A stretch of 45,774 nucleotides of DNA from a phage: the sequence record PZ349761.1; one strand, written 5' to 3'. Of the stretch, positions 5,951 to 41,674 are shown piece by piece (position 1 is the stretch's first letter; each line of letters opens with the position of its first letter). A program made the position numbers and the translations under genes. Under the pieces are notes generated by a model, which saw only the letters and a program-made list of their open reading frames with translations, searched no databases and was not told the origin of the DNA.

Positions 5951-6028
5951 GCTCCGCTAGCTCAATTGGACAGAAGCAACGACCTTCTAAGTCGCAGGTT
6001 ACTGGTTCGAATCCAGTGCGGAGCGCCA
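5951..6028 (+). tRNA. tRNA-Arg (anticodon UCU), CCA encoded
   Basis: Cloverleaf read by eye: 7-bp acceptor GCTCCGC/GCGGAGC, T8, anticodon loop CTTCTAA with TCT at 5986-5988, T-arm ACTGG-TTCGAAT-CCAGT, discriminator G, CCA 6026-6028. Confidence 0.8.
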
Positions 6029-6548: not shown

Positions 6549-7055
6549 ATGAGCAAAGCGGCATTAAAGATGGGTGAGGGAAATTTCAAGGCGCTCTACA
6601 ACAAGAAGTATGGCGATATTGCTATGGTGGCAATTAACCGCAAGTACACGCCTGAGGAAGTTTTTGATTTCGCTGTTCGATACTTCTCATGGGCAGAGAG
6701 TGAGGCAATCAAAGCTACTGAGACAGCAGCATTCCAGGGCGTGGTTAGCGAAAGTCTGGTGCACAAGCCTCGAGTGTTCACATTAACTGGCCTGGCGCTC
6801 TTCATGGGTGTTAACATCAATAGATTCGCTAAATGGCGCACTGAGGCTGGGTACTCTGATGTGATGGAATTCATTGATAACGTAATCTACGAGCAGAAGT
6901 ATCAGCTTGGCGTTGCAGGTATTATCAACTCCACAATCGTTGGTAAAGAGCTAGGCATTGATAAGCCGCAGGAGATTAAGATTAGCAACAACTCCACAGC
7001 TAACGACGTTGATAGCATGAAGGAAGCTCTGGAATCTGTGATTAGTAAGCTATAA
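6549..7055 (+). CDS. putative terminase small subunit
   Basis: 168-aa gene immediately upstream of large terminase, first gene of late block after terminator and extended -10 TGgTATAAT; assignment by position and size only. Confidence 0.5.
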   Translation: MSKAALKMGEGNFKALYNKKYGDIAMVAINRKYTPEEVFDFAVRYFSWAESEAIKATETAAFQGVVSESLVHKPRVFTLTGLALFMGVNINRFAKWRTEAGYSDVMEFIDNVIYEQKYQLGVAGIINSTIVGKELGIDKPQEIKISNNSTANDVDSMKEALESVISKL

Positions 7056-7164: not shown

Positions 7165-8730
7165 ATGTCTTTAGTGTGGGAAGAAATGACCATTCAGGAA
7201 AAGATGGCTGTCAAAGCGATATCAGAGCATAGCTTCGAGGGTTTTCTGCGCTGCTGGTTCCAAATAACACAAGGTGAGCGATACATCCCTAACTGGCATC
7301 ACAAGTACTTGTGCAGAATCATTGACGAGATTATCGCAGGGGAACGCAAGGACACCATCATTAACATAGCTCCGGGCAGCGGAAAGACGGAAATCACATC
7401 AATTCACTTCCCTGTATACTCTATGTTGAAGCTGAAGAAGGTTCGAAACCTTAATATCTCTTTCGCCGACTCAAACGTAAAGCGCAACTCAAAACGAGTG
7501 CGTGACTTAATATCATCAAAGGAGTTCCAGGAACTCTGGCCTTGCAAGTTCGGGACAAATAAGGATGACGAGATTCAGATCGTTGACGACAGCGGAAAGG
7601 TTAGATTCGAGTCCATATCAGCATCAAAAGGAGGCAGGATTACTGGCACGCGTGGTGGTTATATCACCGACACATACAGCGGCGCGGTAATGCTGGATGA
7701 CTTCGATAAACCAGACGAGATGTTTTCATCCGTATACAGGGCAAAGAGTCACACGCTGCTTGGCAATACCATTCGCTCACGCCGCGCTAGCTCGGTAAAA
7801 GGGAAGGCAACTCCAATTATCCAGATTCAGCAGCGACTTCACGTCAATGACTCAACGTGGTTCATGCTTAGCGGTGGTATGGGCATTGATTTTGATTTGG
7901 TGAAGATACCAGCACTGGTTACTGAAGATTACGTTGATACATTACCTGACTGGATTAAACAGCAATTCATTGATGACGTATTATCAAGCGAAAATATCGA
8001 GCGTGACGGAGTGAAGTATTACAGCTACTTCCCAGGGAAAGAGTCCGTGCATGACCTGGTTGCGATGTGGGATAGTGACCCGTACACATTCCTTAGCCAG
8101 TATCAACAAGAACCTGTAGCATTGGGCGGAAATCTTATTAACGTAGACTGGTTCCAGCGTCTTAGTGATACATTCAGGCCTCCAGTTAAGTATGATTACA
8201 GATTCATCACATGCGATACCGCGATGACTACAAAGAGTTATAGTGACTTCTCTGTACTTCAGTTGTGGGGATACAAGGATGCTAAGATTTACCTGATAGA
8301 CCAGCTCAGAGGAAAATGGGAAGCGCCGGAGTTGGAGGCTGAACTACTGGACTTCGAGAAGAAATCAAGGGCAACCAGTCAATCAGATGGCATACTCCGA
8401 AAGATCATCATCGAGAAGAAAGCCTCTGGTATCGGCCTGATTCAATCGGCAGGTAGAGTTATGCGAACACCGATAGAGCCATACGTTCCGGATAACGACA
8501 AGCTGACTCGCGTAATGAGCGCATTGCCACAGATTAAGGCTGGTAATGTCGTTCTTCCAGAGTCTGCGCCGTGGCTAAACGGATTGCTTACTGAGGTTGC
8601 TGCTTTTACGGCAGATGATAGCCACAAACACGACGACCAGATTGACTGTCTAACAATGGCAGTAAACCTTGTACTTAACATTGCGGACGACCCAAAAGCG
8701 CGACTAATGCGCATAGCGGGAATTAAATAG
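7165..8730 (+). CDS. terminase large subunit
   Basis: 521 aa; P-loop-like APGSGKTE near N-terminus, acidic nuclease-type C-terminal half; canonical position before portal. Confidence 0.85.
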   Translation: MSLVWEEMTIQEKMAVKAISEHSFEGFLRCWFQITQGERYIPNWHHKYLCRIIDEIIAGERKDTIINIAPGSGKTEITSIHFPVYSMLKLKKVRNLNISFADSNVKRNSKRVRDLISSKEFQELWPCKFGTNKDDEIQIVDDSGKVRFESISASKGGRITGTRGGYITDTYSGAVMLDDFDKPDEMFSSVYRAKSHTLLGNTIRSRRASSVKGKATPIIQIQQRLHVNDSTWFMLSGGMGIDFDLVKIPALVTEDYVDTLPDWIKQQFIDDVLSSENIERDGVKYYSYFPGKESVHDLVAMWDSDPYTFLSQYQQEPVALGGNLINVDWFQRLSDTFRPPVKYDYRFITCDTAMTTKSYSDFSVLQLWGYKDAKIYLIDQLRGKWEAPELEAELLDFEKKSRATSQSDGILRKIIIEKKASGIGLIQSAGRVMRTPIEPYVPDNDKLTRVMSALPQIKAGNVVLPESAPWLNGLLTEVAAFTADDSHKHDDQIDCLTMAVNLVLNIADDPKARLMRIAGIK

Positions 8731-8744
8731 CACGAATTGCTAAA
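8727..8744 (+). promoter_or_regulatory. conserved palindromic box ATAGCACgaattGCTAAA
   Basis: TAG stop of terminase gene inside box; TATAGT 8765-8770; leader CACACCAACGAGAGG; ATG 8802. Confidence 0.6.
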
Positions 8745-8801
8745 CGCTAGAGCCACGGATGGCGTATAGTTACTTCACACCAACGAGAGGAGAAAAGACA
8801 A

Positions 8802-9176
8802 ATGAAAAACAAATCAAAGGCTTTATATCTTGGAAACACCTATGACGAGTGTTGTGAATTCACTCCGGGAAGAGAGTACGATTTTTACGATCTTGGTGAT
8901 GGATTTATTGGTCTTTGCGATGATAATGATACTGAACGTTGCATTAAAAACGGAACGTTCTACAAGTTTAAACTAATCAATGAGGATCATTTTGTAACTG
9001 AAACTGAGTGCGCATCCATGCAGCCTGGCGCCGATAAAAAACCCGAGTTTAGATATTACATCAATGGCGAAGTGGTTACTAAGGTAAAGTTCGACGATAC
9101 GCTATTATGCGTCAAGGACTTTGAATCTAGTGGGGTTGATACATCATCAATCAAGTTCGAAGTAAAATTCGAGTAA
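8802..9176 (+). CDS. hypothetical Cys-containing protein (124 aa), moron-like insert between terminase and portal
   Basis: Own cassette promoter upstream and own terminator downstream. Confidence 0.55.
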   Translation: MKNKSKALYLGNTYDECCEFTPGREYDFYDLGDGFIGLCDDNDTERCIKNGTFYKFKLINEDHFVTETECASMQPGADKKPEFRYYINGEVVTKVKFDDTLLCVKDFESSGVDTSSIKFEVKFE

Positions 9177-9197
9177 TCAAAAACCGTGTGATAAACT

Positions 9198-9219
9198 AGC
9201 CCCCACATGGGGCTTTTTT
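9198..9219 (+). terminator. rho-independent terminator
   Basis: AGCCCCC-acat-GGGGCT hairpin plus T5. Confidence 0.65.
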
Positions 9220-9232
9220 ATTGGAGAAAAAC

Positions 9233-10486
9233 ATGGTCAAGACAGACAGCTACGCCAATATCTTTCTAGGCGGCAGTGATGGTAGTGAGATTTACGGGAG
9301 CTTACAGAATCAGGAGCCTACAATCCTGGCTTCTCTTTATGCGAATAATGCGCTGGTACGTAGAATTATCGACACAATCCCTGAGACAGCATTAGCGGCA
9401 GGATTCCACATTGATGGTATTGATGATGAGCCAGCATTTTGGTCGCGATGGGATGACCTGGAAATGACGCAGAATATTAACGACGCTTGGTCGTGGGCCA
9501 GATTGTTCGGTGGAGCCGCAATTGTCGCTATCGTTAAGGACAATAGAGCACTAACAAGTCCGGTCAGGGAGGGTGCTGAACTTGAAACTGTTAGAGTTTA
9601 CGATCGCACGCAAGTAAAAGTACAAACTCGCGAGGAGAATCCACGTAACGCACGTTTTGGTAAGCCACTAACCTATCGCATCACCACAAATGAGAGCGAT
9701 ATGTTCTATGATGTGCACTACAGCCGAATTCACATCATTGACGGAGAGCGAATTCCTAACGTAATGCGTCGGCAAAATGATGGCTGGGGCCGTAGCGTTC
9801 TATCCAGTGACATTCTTGACTCAATTAAGGATTACACCAACTGTGAACGACTTGCTACGCAGTTACTGAAGCGCAAGCAGCAGGCGGTGTGGAAGGCGAA
9901 AGGTCTGGCTGAGTTATGTGATGATAGCGAAGGATTTGGTGCAGCTCGATTGAGACTTGCACAGGTTGACAACAATAGCGGCGTAGGCCAGGCGATTGGT
10001 ATCGATGCGGAATCTGAAGAATACAGCATTCTCAACTCCGATATTGGCGGGATCGATGCGTTCCTGGATAAGAAGTTCGATAGAATCGTTGCCCTGAGCG
10101 GTATCCATGAAATCATCCTGAAAAACAAGAACGTTGGTGGTGTGTCATCAAGCCAGAATACAGCCCTTGAGACATTCCATAAGCTAGTTGACCGCAAACG
10201 TAACTCTGAGTTGCTTCCTATTCTTGGGTTCTTAATCCCGTTCATCGTAAATGTAGAAGAGTGGTCAGTTGAGTTTTATCCTTTAGCTCAGGAATCAAGC
10301 AAGGATAAGGCTGAGATTCTGGAGAAGAACGTAAACAGCATTGCATCACTAATTGAATCTGGCGCTATGAATGCTAACGAGGCACGTGATACACTACGAG
10401 CCATCGCACCAGAGATTAAGATTGGTGATGGTGATATTGAAGCTCAACAACAAGAACCAGAAGAGGAGGTTGTAATTAATGAGTAA
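9233..10486 (+). CDS. portal protein
   Basis: About 417 aa directly after terminase; start set to ATG 9233 with RBS GGAG (track start 9221 is TTG). Confidence 0.7.
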   Translation: MVKTDSYANIFLGGSDGSEIYGSLQNQEPTILASLYANNALVRRIIDTIPETALAAGFHIDGIDDEPAFWSRWDDLEMTQNINDAWSWARLFGGAAIVAIVKDNRALTSPVREGAELETVRVYDRTQVKVQTREENPRNARFGKPLTYRITTNESDMFYDVHYSRIHIIDGERIPNVMRRQNDGWGRSVLSSDILDSIKDYTNCERLATQLLKRKQQAVWKAKGLAELCDDSEGFGAARLRLAQVDNNSGVGQAIGIDAESEEYSILNSDIGGIDAFLDKKFDRIVALSGIHEIILKNKNVGGVSSSQNTALETFHKLVDRKRNSELLPILGFLIPFIVNVEEWSVEFYPLAQESSKDKAEILEKNVNSIASLIESGAMNANEARDTLRAIAPEIKIGDGDIEAQQQEPEEEVVINE

Positions 10487-11567
10487 AATCCGCTATGACA
10501 GCGCAAAGTTTAAGGCAACAATCGACGAGAATGGATTCTTAGTCGACACGCCAGTAGTCGCACGTCTAGGCGTGCAGGTCTACTACATGGAGGACGGCCG
10601 CACTGTTCGAGAGTTTCGCCCAGCAGAGGAAGTTTTCAAGGATGAATCCCTCGCGAGCTACCAGGGTAAGCCAATGACTCTGGACCATGTTTTCGTTAAC
10701 TCAGAGAACGCCAAGGAGGTAGTGGTAGGTTCAGTTACTGGCAAGGCTGAACCATTGGGTAGCTCAGTGGTTGCTCCTATTGTTGTTTACGACAACACAG
10801 CCATTCAGGAAGCTATGGCAGGTAACGCTAAAGAGTTATCCGTTGGATACTCATCAGTTATTGATTACACCCCCGGCTGGGGCGACCCTGTTACTGGCGA
10901 GTACTTCCTCAAGTCTGAAAGTGAGCTATTCGACGTACCAGAAGGATGGCAGGAGTTCGACGCAATTCAGCGTGACATTAAAGTGAACCATCTGGCAATG
11001 GTGTATCGCGGTCGCGCAGGTATTGCCAAATTGAATATGGACGGTGAGCAGGAAAACCCGTATACTACTGACGTTGATATCAATAAAGAGGATAAACAGG
11101 AAATGACAGTTAAAATTAAACTCGACGGCGCGCAGGAATTTGAGGTCGCCCCGGAAATCGCCTCTCACATCGAAGCACTGAACGCAAAGGCTGACACCGC
11201 AATCGCAGAGCGCGATTCTCTGAAAGCTAAAGTTGATGCAATGCCTGCTGAAATCGAGGCCGCAGTTGCTAAAGCGAAAGCTGATGCTGATGCCCTGGCT
11301 GCTCTGGTTGCTGTTGCTGCTGAGGCTGGTGTAAAGGCTGATGGACTGGATGCTAAAGGCATTAAAGTAGCTTACGTTAAGGAAGTCTCAGGCCTGGATG
11401 TTTCCGAGAAGTCCGACGCGTACATCGACGCAGCGTTCGACATTGCCAAAGAATCTGATAAAATGGCTGAAGTACGTAAAGCGACTACCGCTTCCGACAA
11501 ATCTGACAGCGCCGATGAGCCTAAGAAATTAGACCCACGTGCTCGTTTAGCTAAAATTAAGAAATAA
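10479..11567 (+). CDS. putative prohead protease/scaffolding protein
   Basis: Globular N-terminal half then Ala/Lys/Glu-rich predicted coiled coil; between portal and capsid genes. Confidence 0.5.
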   Translation: MSKIRYDSAKFKATIDENGFLVDTPVVARLGVQVYYMEDGRTVREFRPAEEVFKDESLASYQGKPMTLDHVFVNSENAKEVVVGSVTGKAEPLGSSVVAPIVVYDNTAIQEAMAGNAKELSVGYSSVIDYTPGWGDPVTGEYFLKSESELFDVPEGWQEFDAIQRDIKVNHLAMVYRGRAGIAKLNMDGEQENPYTTDVDINKEDKQEMTVKIKLDGAQEFEVAPEIASHIEALNAKADTAIAERDSLKAKVDAMPAEIEAAVAKAKADADALAALVAVAAEAGVKADGLDAKGIKVAYVKEVSGLDVSEKSDAYIDAAFDIAKESDKMAEVRKATTASDKSDSADEPKKLDPRARLAKIKK

Positions 11568-20223: not shown

Positions 20224-20227
20224 ACTA

Positions 20228-20251
20228 AGCCCCATTAGGGGCTTTTTTTTT
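20228..20251 (+). terminator. rho-independent terminator
   Basis: AGCCCC-atta-GGGGCT hairpin plus T8. Confidence 0.65.
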
Positions 20252-20264
20252 ATTGGAGAAAATC

Positions 20265-21020
20265 ATGTTAAGTCCAAAGTTTGAAAATCAGTTGCAAAGC
20301 CTTTTCCCCGGAGAGATTGTTACTCTAATCCAGGTTGATGGAACCTCCTTTGGAAGTCTCGTTTACAACTTCCACAATGAGAACATTTCATACACGCCAG
20401 AAGAAATCATGCTAGCCCAAATGAATGGCGAGCCACTACCAGAGAAGACGATTACATTTCGCGGTGAAGAGTACGGGCCTCGACCATTTGGTATCTCGGG
20501 TATCAACATGACGTCTGACGGCAAGGCCAACAAAGTTACGCTAACAGTATCAAACGTAGACCAGCGCATTAGCGCATTGATCCGTACCTATAATGGATTG
20601 GTTAAGGCAAAGGTCACCATCTGGATTACTACGCGAGATAACATCAATGAAGACGGAAGCATTGCTGACGGGGACTATCGCAGATTCGTTTACTTCATTG
20701 AGCGACCAAAGCAGGTTGACTACAAAACGGCATCATTTGAGCTAAGCAGCCCTATGGATATGGATGGCATTTACATTCCAGCGAGACTTGTTCAGTCTGT
20801 TTGCTATTGGGCTTCCAGGGGGTGGTATCGTAGCGGGAATGGTTGCGACTATGCTGGCAATCGTTATTTTGACAAGGATGACAATCCAGTTGATGACCCC
20901 TCTTTAGACTTCTGCTCTGGAACAGTAAACAGCTGTAAGATTAGGTTTGGTGAGAATAATCAGCTTTCATTTGGCGGATGCGCGGCAGCAAGCCTTCAGG
21001 CCAAAGCCAATCAGAGTTAA
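20265..21020 (+). CDS. minor tail protein (gpL-like)
   Basis: About 251 aa; C-terminal Cys cluster C..C..C..C as in tail tip L proteins; ATG 20265 with RBS GGAG. Confidence 0.6.
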   Translation: MLSPKFENQLQSLFPGEIVTLIQVDGTSFGSLVYNFHNENISYTPEEIMLAQMNGEPLPEKTITFRGEEYGPRPFGISGINMTSDGKANKVTLTVSNVDQRISALIRTYNGLVKAKVTIWITTRDNINEDGSIADGDYRRFVYFIERPKQVDYKTASFELSSPMDMDGIYIPARLVQSVCYWASRGWYRSGNGCDYAGNRYFDKDDNPVDDPSLDFCSGTVNSCKIRFGENNQLSFGGCAAASLQAKANQS

Positions 21021-34268: not shown

Positions 34269-34748
34269 TCAAATCGTGCTGTTTTTCTCTTTCTTCTTCT
34301 GGTTCTCTAATTTAATTTTGCGCCAGGAGCGACATTCAGGCTTTGTGGCTAGTTCAGCCTCAGTAACTACGCGCAGCATGTGACGTTTTTTGCAACGAAG
34401 CGTCAATGGCTTTCCGTTACCGTCGAATTGCAGGTCTGGCCTGCAGAATGTAGCGCGAAAACCTTCTCCATTTCGCTTATAGTAGTTGTGCGAAAGTTGA
34501 GCTCCACGTGCAGAAATCATACCACGCTTAAACCATTCCTCTACAGCCTGTGGCGTTACCTTTAACTGCTTCGCTATATTCGCCTTTGTGCCGAAGAAAT
34601 CAAGAACCATCTCCAGCCGTGCTCGTAAGCCAGCCCTTACTTCATCTTTTAATACGTAGTAGCCTGAAGGTCGTTTACGTTGTTTTTTGTCTTTGGTGCG
34701 GACGGTTCCGTTATTACCGTTAATTGTTCGTTTGTCGACTGAACTCAT
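34269..34748 (-). CDS. putative HTH DNA-binding protein (transcriptional regulator candidate)
   Basis: Basic N-terminus, helix-turn-helix-like IAKQLKVTPQAVEEWFKRG; first gene of minus operon at a divergent control region. Confidence 0.5.
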   Translation of the reverse strand: MSSVDKRTINGNNGTVRTKDKKQRKRPSGYYVLKDEVRAGLRARLEMVLDFFGTKANIAKQLKVTPQAVEEWFKRGMISARGAQLSHNYYKRNGEGFRATFCRPDLQFDGNGKPLTLRCKKRHMLRVVTEAELATKPECRSWRKIKLENQKKKEKNSTI

Positions 34749-40232: not shown

Positions 40233-40299
40233 CGCATGCCGCAGAAATGCGGCATAATTACCACATCGAAACGAGATGAACTAAACGAGGAAACACAAA

Positions 40300-40476
40300 A
40301 TGACTAAAATGATTTATTGCACCAAGAACAACTCCAAGACACTGCCATTTACAGTTAACCAACCGTACAATGCAGAGTACCAGGGTGACGGATACTACAA
40401 GATTTACGGCGACGATATGACGTGGATTTTAGCGCCGATTGATGGTTCGCTGGTTGAATTTATTATCGCAGACTAG
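40300..40476 (+). CDS. hypothetical small protein (58 aa)
   Basis: Short ORF with cassette promoter and RBS ACGAGG; read by eye. Confidence 0.4.
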   Translation: MTKMIYCTKNNSKTLPFTVNQPYNAEYQGDGYYKIYGDDMTWILAPIDGSLVEFIIAD

Positions 40477-40580: not shown

Positions 40581-40823
40581 TTGACAGATAGACAAATGGA
40601 GGATCACATGAGGGAAGTAATCAACGCCGCTACGGCGTCAACTGGAGGGGCAGCGGTAACTGGAGCGGCAACTGGTCAGATGACTATAGCAATAATCAGC
40701 CTTATCGCTTTAATCATTTTTGGTGCGTGGGGTGCTTACTGGAAGTTTAAGGATAGCCAGGCGATTCGGCGCGCTCTTGAATCAGGAGACTTAAAAACAG
40801 CAATCAAGATAAGGAGTAAGTAA
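40581..40823 (+). CDS. holin (pinholin-like, two predicted TMDs)
   Basis: 80 aa; weakly hydrophobic Gly/Ala-rich segment then strongly hydrophobic MTIAIISLIALIIFGAWGAY, charged C-terminus; immediately upstream of endolysin. Confidence 0.55.
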   Translation: MTDRQMEDHMREVINAATASTGGAAVTGAATGQMTIAIISLIALIIFGAWGAYWKFKDSQAIRRALESGDLKTAIKIRSK

Positions 40824-41309
40824 ATGAAGCAGAAGCTGCTAATTAGCGCGGCTACGGCTGCGGCAATATACATCGCAGCGCCGCTTATTGAGCTCGTTGA
40901 GGGTGTGGAGAACAAGCCTTACATGGACATTGCCGGAATCCCTACAGTTTGTTCTGGTATTACTGGTCCTGACGTTGTTTGGGGTAAGACTTACAGCAAT
41001 AGTGAGTGCCGTAACCTGCTGGAGAAACACATCCAGATTCATGCTAAGTATGTTCAGGATGCAGTTACCTACCCAATTGCACCACAGACAAGAGCTGCAT
41101 TAATCAGCTTTAGCTATAACGTTGGCGGCAATGCAATGAGGAAGTCTACCGCTGTAAGGCTAATCAACCAGGGTAAAGTTGAGAAGGGTTGCAACGCTCT
41201 CGGGATGTGGAACAAAGCAAGAGTTAACGGAAAGCTGAAGGTAGTTAAAGGCTTGGTGAATCGCAGGAATGAGGAGATTAAGTTATGTTTAAGTGGATTG
41301 CAGCGTTAG
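40824..41309 (+). CDS. GH24 lysozyme endolysin with N-terminal signal-anchor-release (SAR)-like segment
   Basis: Catalytic triad spacing E-x8-D-x5-T in EGVENKPYMDIAGIPT; N-terminus LLISAATAAAIYIAAPL is Ala/Gly-rich and weakly hydrophobic. Confidence 0.7.
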   Translation: MKQKLLISAATAAAIYIAAPLIELVEGVENKPYMDIAGIPTVCSGITGPDVVWGKTYSNSECRNLLEKHIQIHAKYVQDAVTYPIAPQTRAALISFSYNVGGNAMRKSTAVRLINQGKVEKGCNALGMWNKARVNGKLKVVKGLVNRRNEEIKLCLSGLQR

Positions 41310-41674
41310 TAGTGTGCGTAGCTTTATCTGGATGTTCGGCAACTGATGCACTGACTGGATTGATTGGAAGCAAGCCGGAAGTTACAGCTCAGGTCGGGGC
41401 TGAGAACAACAAGGTTGGCGTTGGGTTAACGAATAAGGTCGATTCCAGCAGCTCCAGTGAAGCCACGGTTAAAGATTCTAAAGTTGGGTCACTTGATAGC
41501 TCAAGCGGGAAAAAGACTGCTGACAACTCTATTAAGGCATCTACAATCACTGCCGAAAAGATTGAGATTACCAACAACGACTCATCCGCGCCTCCATGGA
41601 TTGTAATGGGAGCTATGGGGTTGCTGTTTTTTGTTCCACTTACCGCAATCTTAAGACGCAAAAAAGCCTCCTAA
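41285..41674 (+). CDS. unimolecular spanin (N-terminal lipoprotein signal plus C-terminal TMD)
   Basis: Lipobox LSGC after signal peptide; C-terminal WIVMGAMGLLFFVPLTAIL then RRKKAS; last gene of lysis cassette. Confidence 0.65.
   Translation: MFKWIAALVVCVALSGCSATDALTGLIGSKPEVTAQVGAENNKVGVGLTNKVDSSSSSEATVKDSKVGSLDSSSGKKTADNSIKASTITAEKIEITNNDSSAPPWIVMGAMGLLFFVPLTAILRRKKAS

Follow-up and report, generated by a model that had tools for sequence, protein, structure and literature searches.

The locus between terL and portal

In the phage sequence PZ349761.1, a stretch of 45,774 nucleotides that is hereafter called the window, an open reading frame (ORF) for a protein of 124 amino acids (aa) lies between terL, which encodes the large subunit of the terminase, and the portal gene. 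The ORF, a member of the PHROG family phrog_14592, and the expression signals that surround it are the subject of this report (Table 1). As judged from matches of the TerL-portal DNA to a phage collection, the locus is of the type found in T1/Rtp-like siphophages of the family Drexlerviridae: the Veterinaerplatzvirus T145P1 genomes are the nearest records (∼91% nucleotide identity), followed by dozens of Escherichia phages, e.g., Rtp, CEB_EC3a, ACG-M12, DTL and the BASEL ‘Piccard’ phages.

Alignment with three close relatives (L005, L009 and L011, the last being DTL; L-numbers label compared loci and P-numbers protein family members) delimits a segment of ∼452 bp that is missing from their junctions. 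The first three bases of the box at which the cassette begins are at the same time the stop codon TAG of terL (8728–8730), and the segment holds the remainder of this box, a spacer, a −10-like hexamer, a leader and the ORF, whose ATG is preceded at a distance of 9 nt by a strong Shine-Dalgarno (SD) sequence, AGGAG (8788–8792). The G+C (GC) content of the ORF is 38.1%, as compared with 46.4% for TerL and 46.3% for portal. Where the segment is missing, the relatives read GGAATTAAATAGC/CGTGATAAACTAGCCCC (the slash marks the junction point). The natural empty junction is TAGC/CGTGATAAACT; in its longer form, TAGC at the end of terL is followed by CGTGATAAACTAGCCCCTACATGGGGCTTTTTTATTGGAGAAA and then by the portal ATG, and it contains the same hairpin as that at 9198–9214 in the window.

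This hairpin belongs to an intrinsic terminator folding at −15 kcal/mol (z = −2.7; RNA fold), which the original prediction (at 9198–9219) had taken to insulate the gene. Hairpin and T-run are indeed present and shield the portal side, but an identical hairpin directly follows TerL at the empty sites, including that of phage T1, for which a terminator is annotated there. Hence, the terminator is a backbone element that lies outside the insert. The ORF comes last in the terS-terL unit, in front of the terminator of this unit. The terminator scan detected no other terminator in the interval from terL to the ORF, so that the two genes may be co-transcribed; the insulation is confined to the portal side. 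The motif GATAAACT on the 5′ side of the hairpin, which reads TATAAT in distant relatives, was considered as a portal promoter and rejected, since the A-tract pairs with the U-tract as in a terminator of bidirectional type (RNA fold).

Variable presence among relatives

Gene order was compared in 57 IMG/VR loci retrieved by portal homology and in several annotated records, and TerL and portal could both be placed in 55. The two genes are directly adjacent, with a gap of 52–102 bp, in 44 of the 55 loci and likewise in phage T1, which bears out the earlier claim that the ORF is inserted between two normally adjacent packaging genes. A family member occupies the gap in five loci (phiEB49, Rtp, IME253, CEB_EC3a and Sd1) and an HNH endonuclease gene in four; L053 and L054, with gaps of 237 and 369 bp and an incomplete TerL or portal match, were treated as alignment artefacts. 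Relatives with 91–93% portal identity (L005, L009, DTL) are empty and others with 90–96% are filled, so that filled and empty states interleave among phages of similar portal identity. The comparison with related phages that had been proposed as a check thus finds the insert to be variable, and the gene, with 44 of 55 loci empty, is not one conserved in all relatives. Of the 110 records in the phage collection with a match to the TerL-portal DNA, only 34 have a protein match as well, and metagenomes provided more TerL-portal examples, all of which possess the cassette (a scan with a 15-sequence alignment gave 4 loci).

The HNH genes at this junction encode products of ∼170 aa in L006, L032 and L055, while the ORF of L017 is not cleanly delimited. 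Those of L006 and L017 have a box/−10 cassette of their own in front, and those of L032 and L055 lie upstream of a ‘solo box’. Such a box, without cargo gene, stands right after the TerL stop codon in 27 of the 44 empty junctions, mostly of distant relatives, with a TATAAT-like A-tract and then the terminator hairpin beginning 8–9 nt further on (solo-box loci at TerL-portal: L018–L037, L040, L043, L047–L049, L051, L056–L058); it may be what a lost cargo has left behind, or it may serve as a landing pad. In the record of phage JK06 (L062 2894–3499), TerL and portal are broken into fragments. Upstream of terS, the window carries a gene for tRNA-Arg(tct) (5951–6028, plus strand), as do CEB_EC3a and SU57.

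A repeated box/−10/leader cassette

The sequence in front of the ORF is one copy of a promoter-like cassette consisting of the palindromic box TAGCACGAATTGCTAAA, 20 nt, a hexamer TAnnnT and a conserved leader. Counts of the box in the window range from 10 to 14, against 0.05–0.15 expected; with ≤3 mismatches allowed there are 14 copies (0.15 expected), and phage T1 (L069) has 13 (0.10 expected). A TAnnnT hexamer lies at an offset of exactly 22 nt from TTGCTA for 11 of the 14 window boxes and for 9 of 12 T1 boxes, against a background of ∼1.6% per position, and the −10-like hexamer is kept in all loci bearing a homologue of the ORF. The leader, which follows the pattern TACyyCAyC..AACGAGAGGAG and then ATG, is common to family members at three insertion sites. 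Taken together, the box counts, the fixed hexamer offset and the shared leader identify the cassette as real and family-wide. Several copies in the window precede genes of DNA metabolism or host takeover (Table 1), others precede small-ORF clusters, and no structural gene of the window has a cassette in front of it, the slot of the 124-aa ORF apart.

The box (8728–8744), the TATAGT hexamer and the leader are thus present as had been noted. They do not form a canonical sigma-70 promoter, since a −35 element would have to lie 5 nt closer to the hexamer than the box does, and the ‘early’ timing that had been ascribed to the cassette is suggested by the genes which share it. The centre of the box lies ∼42 nt ahead of the inferred start of transcription, and this geometry, an inverted repeat near −42, suggests a binding site for an activator or appropriator. 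Three readings of the box were considered and rejected: as an ordinary −35 element, for which a spacer of 22 nt from TTGCTA is too long; as a sigma-54 promoter (consensus TGGCACG-N4-TTGCW), for which the spacing is 2 nt short, AG replaces GG and a −10 hexamer stands at fixed distance; and as a T4 MotA box, with which it has the TGCT core in common but not the position (∼−37 to −42 versus −30). We found no description of the motif in the searchable literature. A protein of 159 aa encoded on the minus strand (34269–34748) shows weak helix-turn-helix (HTH) matches (RacR/DicC-like, E 0.01–0.02) and occupies the position of T1 ST23, which is annotated as ‘transcriptional regulator’; it is a candidate for the reader of the box.

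The same unit at other junctions

A profile search for the phrog_14592 family yielded 35 clusters among 1.84 billion representatives, and members of the family are found at three junctions of the late operon (Table 1). P0035 and P0037 are placed between the tail genes M and L, where an HNH gene adjoins one of the family copies, while P0041 (the second copy in AugustePiccard), P0048, P0028 and phiEB49 gp37 are placed between the tail genes L and K; ACG-M12, JulesPiccard and BEK6 likewise have a second copy outside the TerL-portal slot. Wherever junction DNA existed (P0037 is without DNA), the unit has the same order at the three junctions: the upstream stop codon fused to the box, a 20-nt spacer, TATAGT or TATAAT, the leader, an ORF of 105–127 aa, the hairpin, and TTTTTTATTGGAG followed by the ATG of the next gene.

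The window itself is empty at both tail junctions. Its M-L junction (20224–20266), which is filled by a family member in other phages, carries a near-twin of the TerL-portal terminator and SD, TAAACTAAGCCCCATTAGGGGCTTTTTTTTTATTGGAGAAAATCATG, and the M-L terminator, like that at TerL-portal, is thus already present in empty sites. The L-K junction of the window is 12 nt long and has neither terminator nor box; at L-K, the terminator and a new SD must hence have come with the unit, which makes the L-K unit an apparently complete promoter-gene-terminator moron.

The family also extends beyond the Drexlerviridae. In the rV5-like myovirus contig L068 (IMGVR_UViG_3300045988_159287, 140.6 kb), a member with 38% identity (2498–2950) belongs to a group of small ORFs that adjoins the DNA polymerase gene, with a perfect TTGACA-N17-TATAAT promoter in front of it and a box-type cassette (TAGCACTTTTTGCTAAA, 20 nt, TATATT, leader) directly after it. 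Since both are present in this contig, the regulatory module and the gene cross phage families. The small ORFs of L068 look SH3-like by eye, and three of them that were scanned had no Pfam match. As for phiEB49, gp57 (L002/L004 2811–3142) is annotated with 68 aa, and the 45 conserved C-terminal residues run on in a different reading frame, as a frameshift or an error in sequencing would produce; the second family member, gp37 at the L-K junction (L078 1444–1809), is intact.

An alternative history would be that of an ancestral TerL-portal gene which was lost in most lineages, with the box as an old feature of the junction. The solo boxes would then be possible relics, and the terminator is common to all states of the junction. 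Such a scenario appears improbable when one considers that the unit is also found at the M-L and L-K junctions, the latter being without box and terminator when empty, that a member is found in an unrelated myovirus, that the gene is low in GC, and that filled and empty states are mixed among close relatives. Under either history, insertion or loss, the gene is dispensable.

The encoded protein

The phrog_14592 profile matches residues 5–124 of the protein over profile positions 2–116 of 116 (E = 1.1e-31); Rtp22, phiEB49 gp57 and gp37 as well as JK_35P are its direct homologues within this family (full length, E = 1e-31), from which it does not differ in kind. No match was found in Pfam, NCBIfam, PADLOC or the sequences of the PDB. 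The AlphaFold2 model, calculated from a 39-sequence alignment (mean predicted local distance difference test score, pLDDT, 78.5), consists of a five-stranded barrel at residues 5–59, disorder at 62–78 and a ββαβ arrangement at residues 83–123 with pLDDT 89–97. Consistently, the family alignment exhibits a variable N-terminal half, a linker of variable length and 43 conserved C-terminal residues with the motif (K/R)YxING..V....F....l.......GV...sIKFEVKFE. Only Y26, N88 and F97 are invariant. The protein had been described as cysteine-containing, which holds for the window copy with its six cysteines; it is not a family trait, since members have between 0 and 7 cysteines and share no invariant one. 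Family proteins are acidic (isoelectric points mostly 4.4–5.7) and hydrophilic and lack a hydrophobic N-terminus, and no signal peptide or membrane segment is present in the window protein.

The two domains differ markedly in their relationships. Compared with the CEB_EC3a homologue, the identity is 29% for the N-domain and 86% for the C-domain, while the corresponding values for Rtp are 47% and 44%; TerL and portal identity is 83–95% throughout in these comparisons. The N- and C-domains recombine independently. Within one sequence type, the ratio of nonsynonymous to synonymous polymorphism (pN/pS) of the C-domain is 0.12–0.31, indicative of purifying selection, and hence the ORF is a real, constrained coding sequence; for the N-domain, synonymous sites are saturated at 30–50% amino-acid identity. 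C-domain types are independent of the insertion site, P0037 (M-L) resembling Sd1 (TerL-portal), which argues against docking of the domain to the product of a neighbouring gene.

The N-domain superposes on DUF7244 proteins with TM scores of 0.69–0.78 and root-mean-square deviations of 1.7–1.9. It could thus be asked whether the family, like the stand-alone DUF7244 gene, encodes a cell-wall or lysis-associated SH3 protein. The window contains a bona fide DUF7244 gene (40285–40473, plus strand; 63 aa, E = 1.7e-29) next to a DNA-repair exonuclease gene, with a run of three ORFs on its other side (40581–41674) that were taken as putative lysis genes; a search for paralogues among the 584 ORFs of the window detected none of significance and a weak likeness to this gene (E = 0.04). 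Moreover, 5 of the 39 family members give sub-threshold DUF7244 matches (best E = 0.005), and a lysis-related role has been proposed for the DUF7244 gene (PMC13164509). That role is itself a hypothesis only, the window protein has no DUF7244 match at E ≤ 1 and lacks the signal peptide or membrane segment that access to the periplasm would require, and the family is never found near lysis genes. We consider a function in lysis to be very improbable.

A second alternative would be a selfish mobile element, whose protein would promote its own spread, as a cofactor of HNH endonucleases or as a homing-type nuclease that escaped recognition, and would be of no benefit to the phage. The sporadic distribution, the insertion between conserved essential genes, the promoter-like cassette of its own, the low GC content and the paralogues at several junctions are hallmarks of free-standing homing endonucleases, HNH genes use the same TerL-portal junction, some of them with the same box cassette, and one adjoins an M-L copy. 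The protein, however, has no nuclease motif (HNH, GIY-YIG, LAGLIDADG or PD-(D/E)xK) and no Pfam or NCBIfam match; Y26, N88 and F97 being the only invariant residues, there is no conserved His, Cys or acidic triad, nor is the E-x-K of the last strand kept in the family. With 105–127 aa, divided between an SH3-like barrel and a domain of 43 aa, the members are also small for a site-specific nuclease. A reading of the C-terminal F-E-V-K-F as part of a PD-(D/E)xK site was rejected, since family members have S, G or R in place of the Lys. Purifying selection on the C-domain fits selfish and non-selfish views alike, and overall a selfish element seems rather improbable.

Table 1. Features of the TerL-portal locus and of related loci (positions refer to the window unless a locus is named)
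Feature	Position	Strand	Basis or remark
terS	6549–7055	+	gene order at locus
terL (terminase large subunit), left neighbour	7165–8730	+	Pfam Terminase_6C and phrog_38, E=1e-106
box TAGCACGAATTGCTAAA	8728–8744	+	inverted repeat TAGCA-N5-TGCTA, upstream element of repeated promoter-like cassette
segment missing in close relatives with empty junction, ∼452 bp	8732–9183	+	alignment with L005, L009, L011 (DTL)
−10-like hexamer TATAGT	8765–8770	+	exactly 22 nt past box TTGCTA
leader TACTTCACACCAACGAGAGGAG, including SD AGGAG (8788–8792)	8771–8801	+	kept in other window cassettes
124-aa ORF, phrog_14592 family	8802–9176	+	ORF list; phrog profile
variable SH3-like β-barrel, residues 1–60	8802–8981	+	predicted
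disordered linker, residues 61–81	8982–9044	+	predicted
conserved ββαβ domain, residues 82–124	9045–9173	+	predicted
intrinsic terminator: A-tract 9190–9197, hairpin 9198–9214, T-run	9190–9222	+	terminator scan
portal SD GGAG	9223–9226	+	5′ of portal ATG
portal gene, right neighbour	9233–10486	+	Pfam Phage_portal_3, E=1e-66; phrog_146
prohead protease	10479–11567	+	gene order at locus
cassette copies, plus strand	1827, 2620, 3147, 4030, 4947, 8728, 29390, 33224, 37258	+
cassette copies, minus strand	27130, 34281, 43773, 44555, 45624	−
cassette before Erf recombinase and SSB (single-stranded-DNA-binding protein)	29390	+
cassette before helicase operon	44555	−
cassette before gene downstream of HTH regulator, at T1 primase position	34281	−	correspondence judged from T1 annotation
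cassette before membrane/host-takeover protein	27130	−
unit at TerL-portal	window, CEB_EC3a, Rtp, Sd1, L076, L080–L082
unit at tail M-L	L071
unit at tail L-K	AugustePiccard L070, phiEB49 gp37 L078, L072–L075
HNH genes at TerL-portal	L006 2868–3501, L017 2175–2764, L032 2907–3501, L055 2902–3501

Discussion

Our findings that the ORF is present in some and absent in other close relatives, that it recurs with the same signals at several junctions, and that it is preceded by a promoter-like module of non-structural type show that it is a dispensable, horizontally shuffled unit of low GC. We suggest that the segment represents a portable cassette with an accessory gene, structurally a moron, which is located in the late operon and encodes a dispensable binder serving host takeover or anti-defence rather than a part of the virion; the probability of this reading is, in our estimate, roughly 0.6. 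The module fused to the upstream stop codon, that is, the box, the 20-nt spacer, TATAGT and the leader with its strong SD, would drive the 124-aa ORF, and transcription would end at the intrinsic terminator that directly precedes the following late gene. Because such modules precede the genes for Erf and SSB, helicase and primase as well as clusters of small genes, and stand before no further structural gene, a non-structural (early/middle) schedule is the most likely one for the protein. As there is no obstacle to read-through from terL, terS-terL transcripts would probably yield the protein too, from their last cistron. It would be a soluble, acidic protein of the cytoplasm and would act as a non-enzymatic binder, the variable SH3-like barrel recognising a variable host or defence-system target and the conserved C-domain providing for oligomerisation or docking to a constant partner. 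Host takeover or anti-defence thus seems to us the most plausible role.

Several observations weigh against this proposal. The generic sigma-70 scan called no promoter at the box and −10 hexamer of the ORF, and the searchable literature provided no transcription data for any T1-like phage, the one candidate paper being concerned with a T5-like phage. No link between the protein and any defence system was found. The fold of the C-domain could be matched to none of the known structures. Furthermore, RefSeq and PHROGs name the family ‘virion structural protein’, phrog_14592 being filed under head and packaging, and the Drexlerviridae copies (TerL-portal, M-L and L-K) are all located within the structural operon, as would also be expected for a protein with a role in the virion or its assembly.

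The latter two points bring up the alternative of a minor virion protein or assembly accessory, for instance a decoration protein, a head-completion factor or a tail-assembly helper, which would be expressed with the late operon. The missing terminator between terL and the gene would fit such an accessory, and one record names a homologue ‘putative minor outer capsid protein’. The family is, however, not kept among phages that build the same virion, being absent from most Drexlerviridae loci including those of T1 and DTL, and its cassette is of the type found in front of non-structural genes. Likewise, the member in the rV5-like phage neighbours the DNA polymerase gene, and C-domain types do not follow the insertion site. 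As for the label, which in RefSeq is given to both gp57 and gp37 of phiEB49, we could trace no source evidence in the literature searched; it appears to be applied loosely, since a portal fragment of JK06, JK_34, bears the same name. Among the seven structural proteins listed from gel-band mass spectrometry in a study of four phages, the family protein does not appear (Niu et al. 2014, PMC4070988), a list that is uninformative for AHS24 because its TerL-portal junction is empty (L014). The study by Kropinski et al. 2012 (PMC3496638) does not list it either but has no bearing on the matter, given that three gel bands only were analysed, and the ACG-M12 paper mentions neither promoters nor proteomics. 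On balance, we regard a virion or assembly function as unlikely.

It is then of interest to compare the unit with known mobile elements. A moron in the sense of Juhala and Hendrix, as seen in lambdoid and HK97-like phages, comprises promoter, gene and terminator and is inserted between two late genes which adjoin each other in related phages. The original prediction had called the gene moron-like, and it shares with morons the insertion between genes that adjoin in most relatives, a promoter-like element in front, a terminator after it, a differing GC content and a sporadic distribution. At TerL-portal, however, the terminator pre-exists in empty sites and is not the insert’s own, and the promoter is the phage’s own repeated cassette of non-structural type instead of a host-type promoter. 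T1-like phages are, moreover, virulent (no integrase was noticed), so that expression from a repressed prophage, to the benefit of the lysogen, probably does not come into play. The PeSL (promoter-early stem-loop) cassettes, mobile regulatory elements of T4-type phages reportedly described by Arbiol et al. in 2010, are likewise repeated, promoter-containing motifs beside small accessory ORFs, and the present cassette could similarly supply both expression signals and homology for shuffling; it differs from them in sequence motif and by landing in the late structural operon instead of hyperplastic early regions. Finally, the free-standing HNH genes of Drexlerviridae share the TerL-portal junction, sometimes the box cassette (L006, L017) and an equally sporadic occurrence, whereas the phrog_14592 family has no HNH or other nuclease motif. 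The gene is not a new kind of system but a better-characterised member of a known one.

With regard to the protein, the nearest experimentally studied analogue in the phage family is Gp54 of phage Bas11 (PMC11578894; PDB 9axb), a non-essential SH3-like barrel which is sensed by CapRelSJ46 and which its authors suspect of inhibiting another defence system. This is a resemblance and not a membership: like Gp54 and the DUF7244 protein (PMC13164509), the window protein comprises a small SH3-like β-barrel from the same phage family, but it has two domains, with the conserved C-domain as an addition, it exhibits no significant sequence similarity to either, and its gene is located at a different genomic position. 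It is tempting to speculate further, if only as a doubtful possibility, that the units are actively shuffled ‘plug-and-play’ modules. Recombination among the more than 10 boxes and the near-identical terminator/SD junctions would move cargo, be it this family or HNH genes, even into unrelated coliphages, and the cargo would be an arms-race binder whose hypervariable SH3-like domain neutralises host immunity proteins or is sensed by them, as Gp54 is by CapRel.

To our knowledge, the transcription programme and the accessory genes of T1-like phages are almost unstudied, common as these phages are in therapy and in the laboratory. What is new here is that the phrog_14592 unit is portable across three junctions, and that a family-wide promoter-like box exists which was hitherto undescribed. 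The name ‘virion structural protein’ is misleading for a family that behaves as a dispensable, portable gene with a promoter-like cassette of non-structural type. The module of box, −10 hexamer, leader and terminator/SD could help to predict other accessory cargo in Drexlerviridae, and it could also serve for engineering payloads into late-operon junctions while leaving the neighbouring genes undisturbed. Should the protein indeed have a binding target in host defence or takeover, it would turn out to be a useful reagent and might influence the host range of the phages that carry it.

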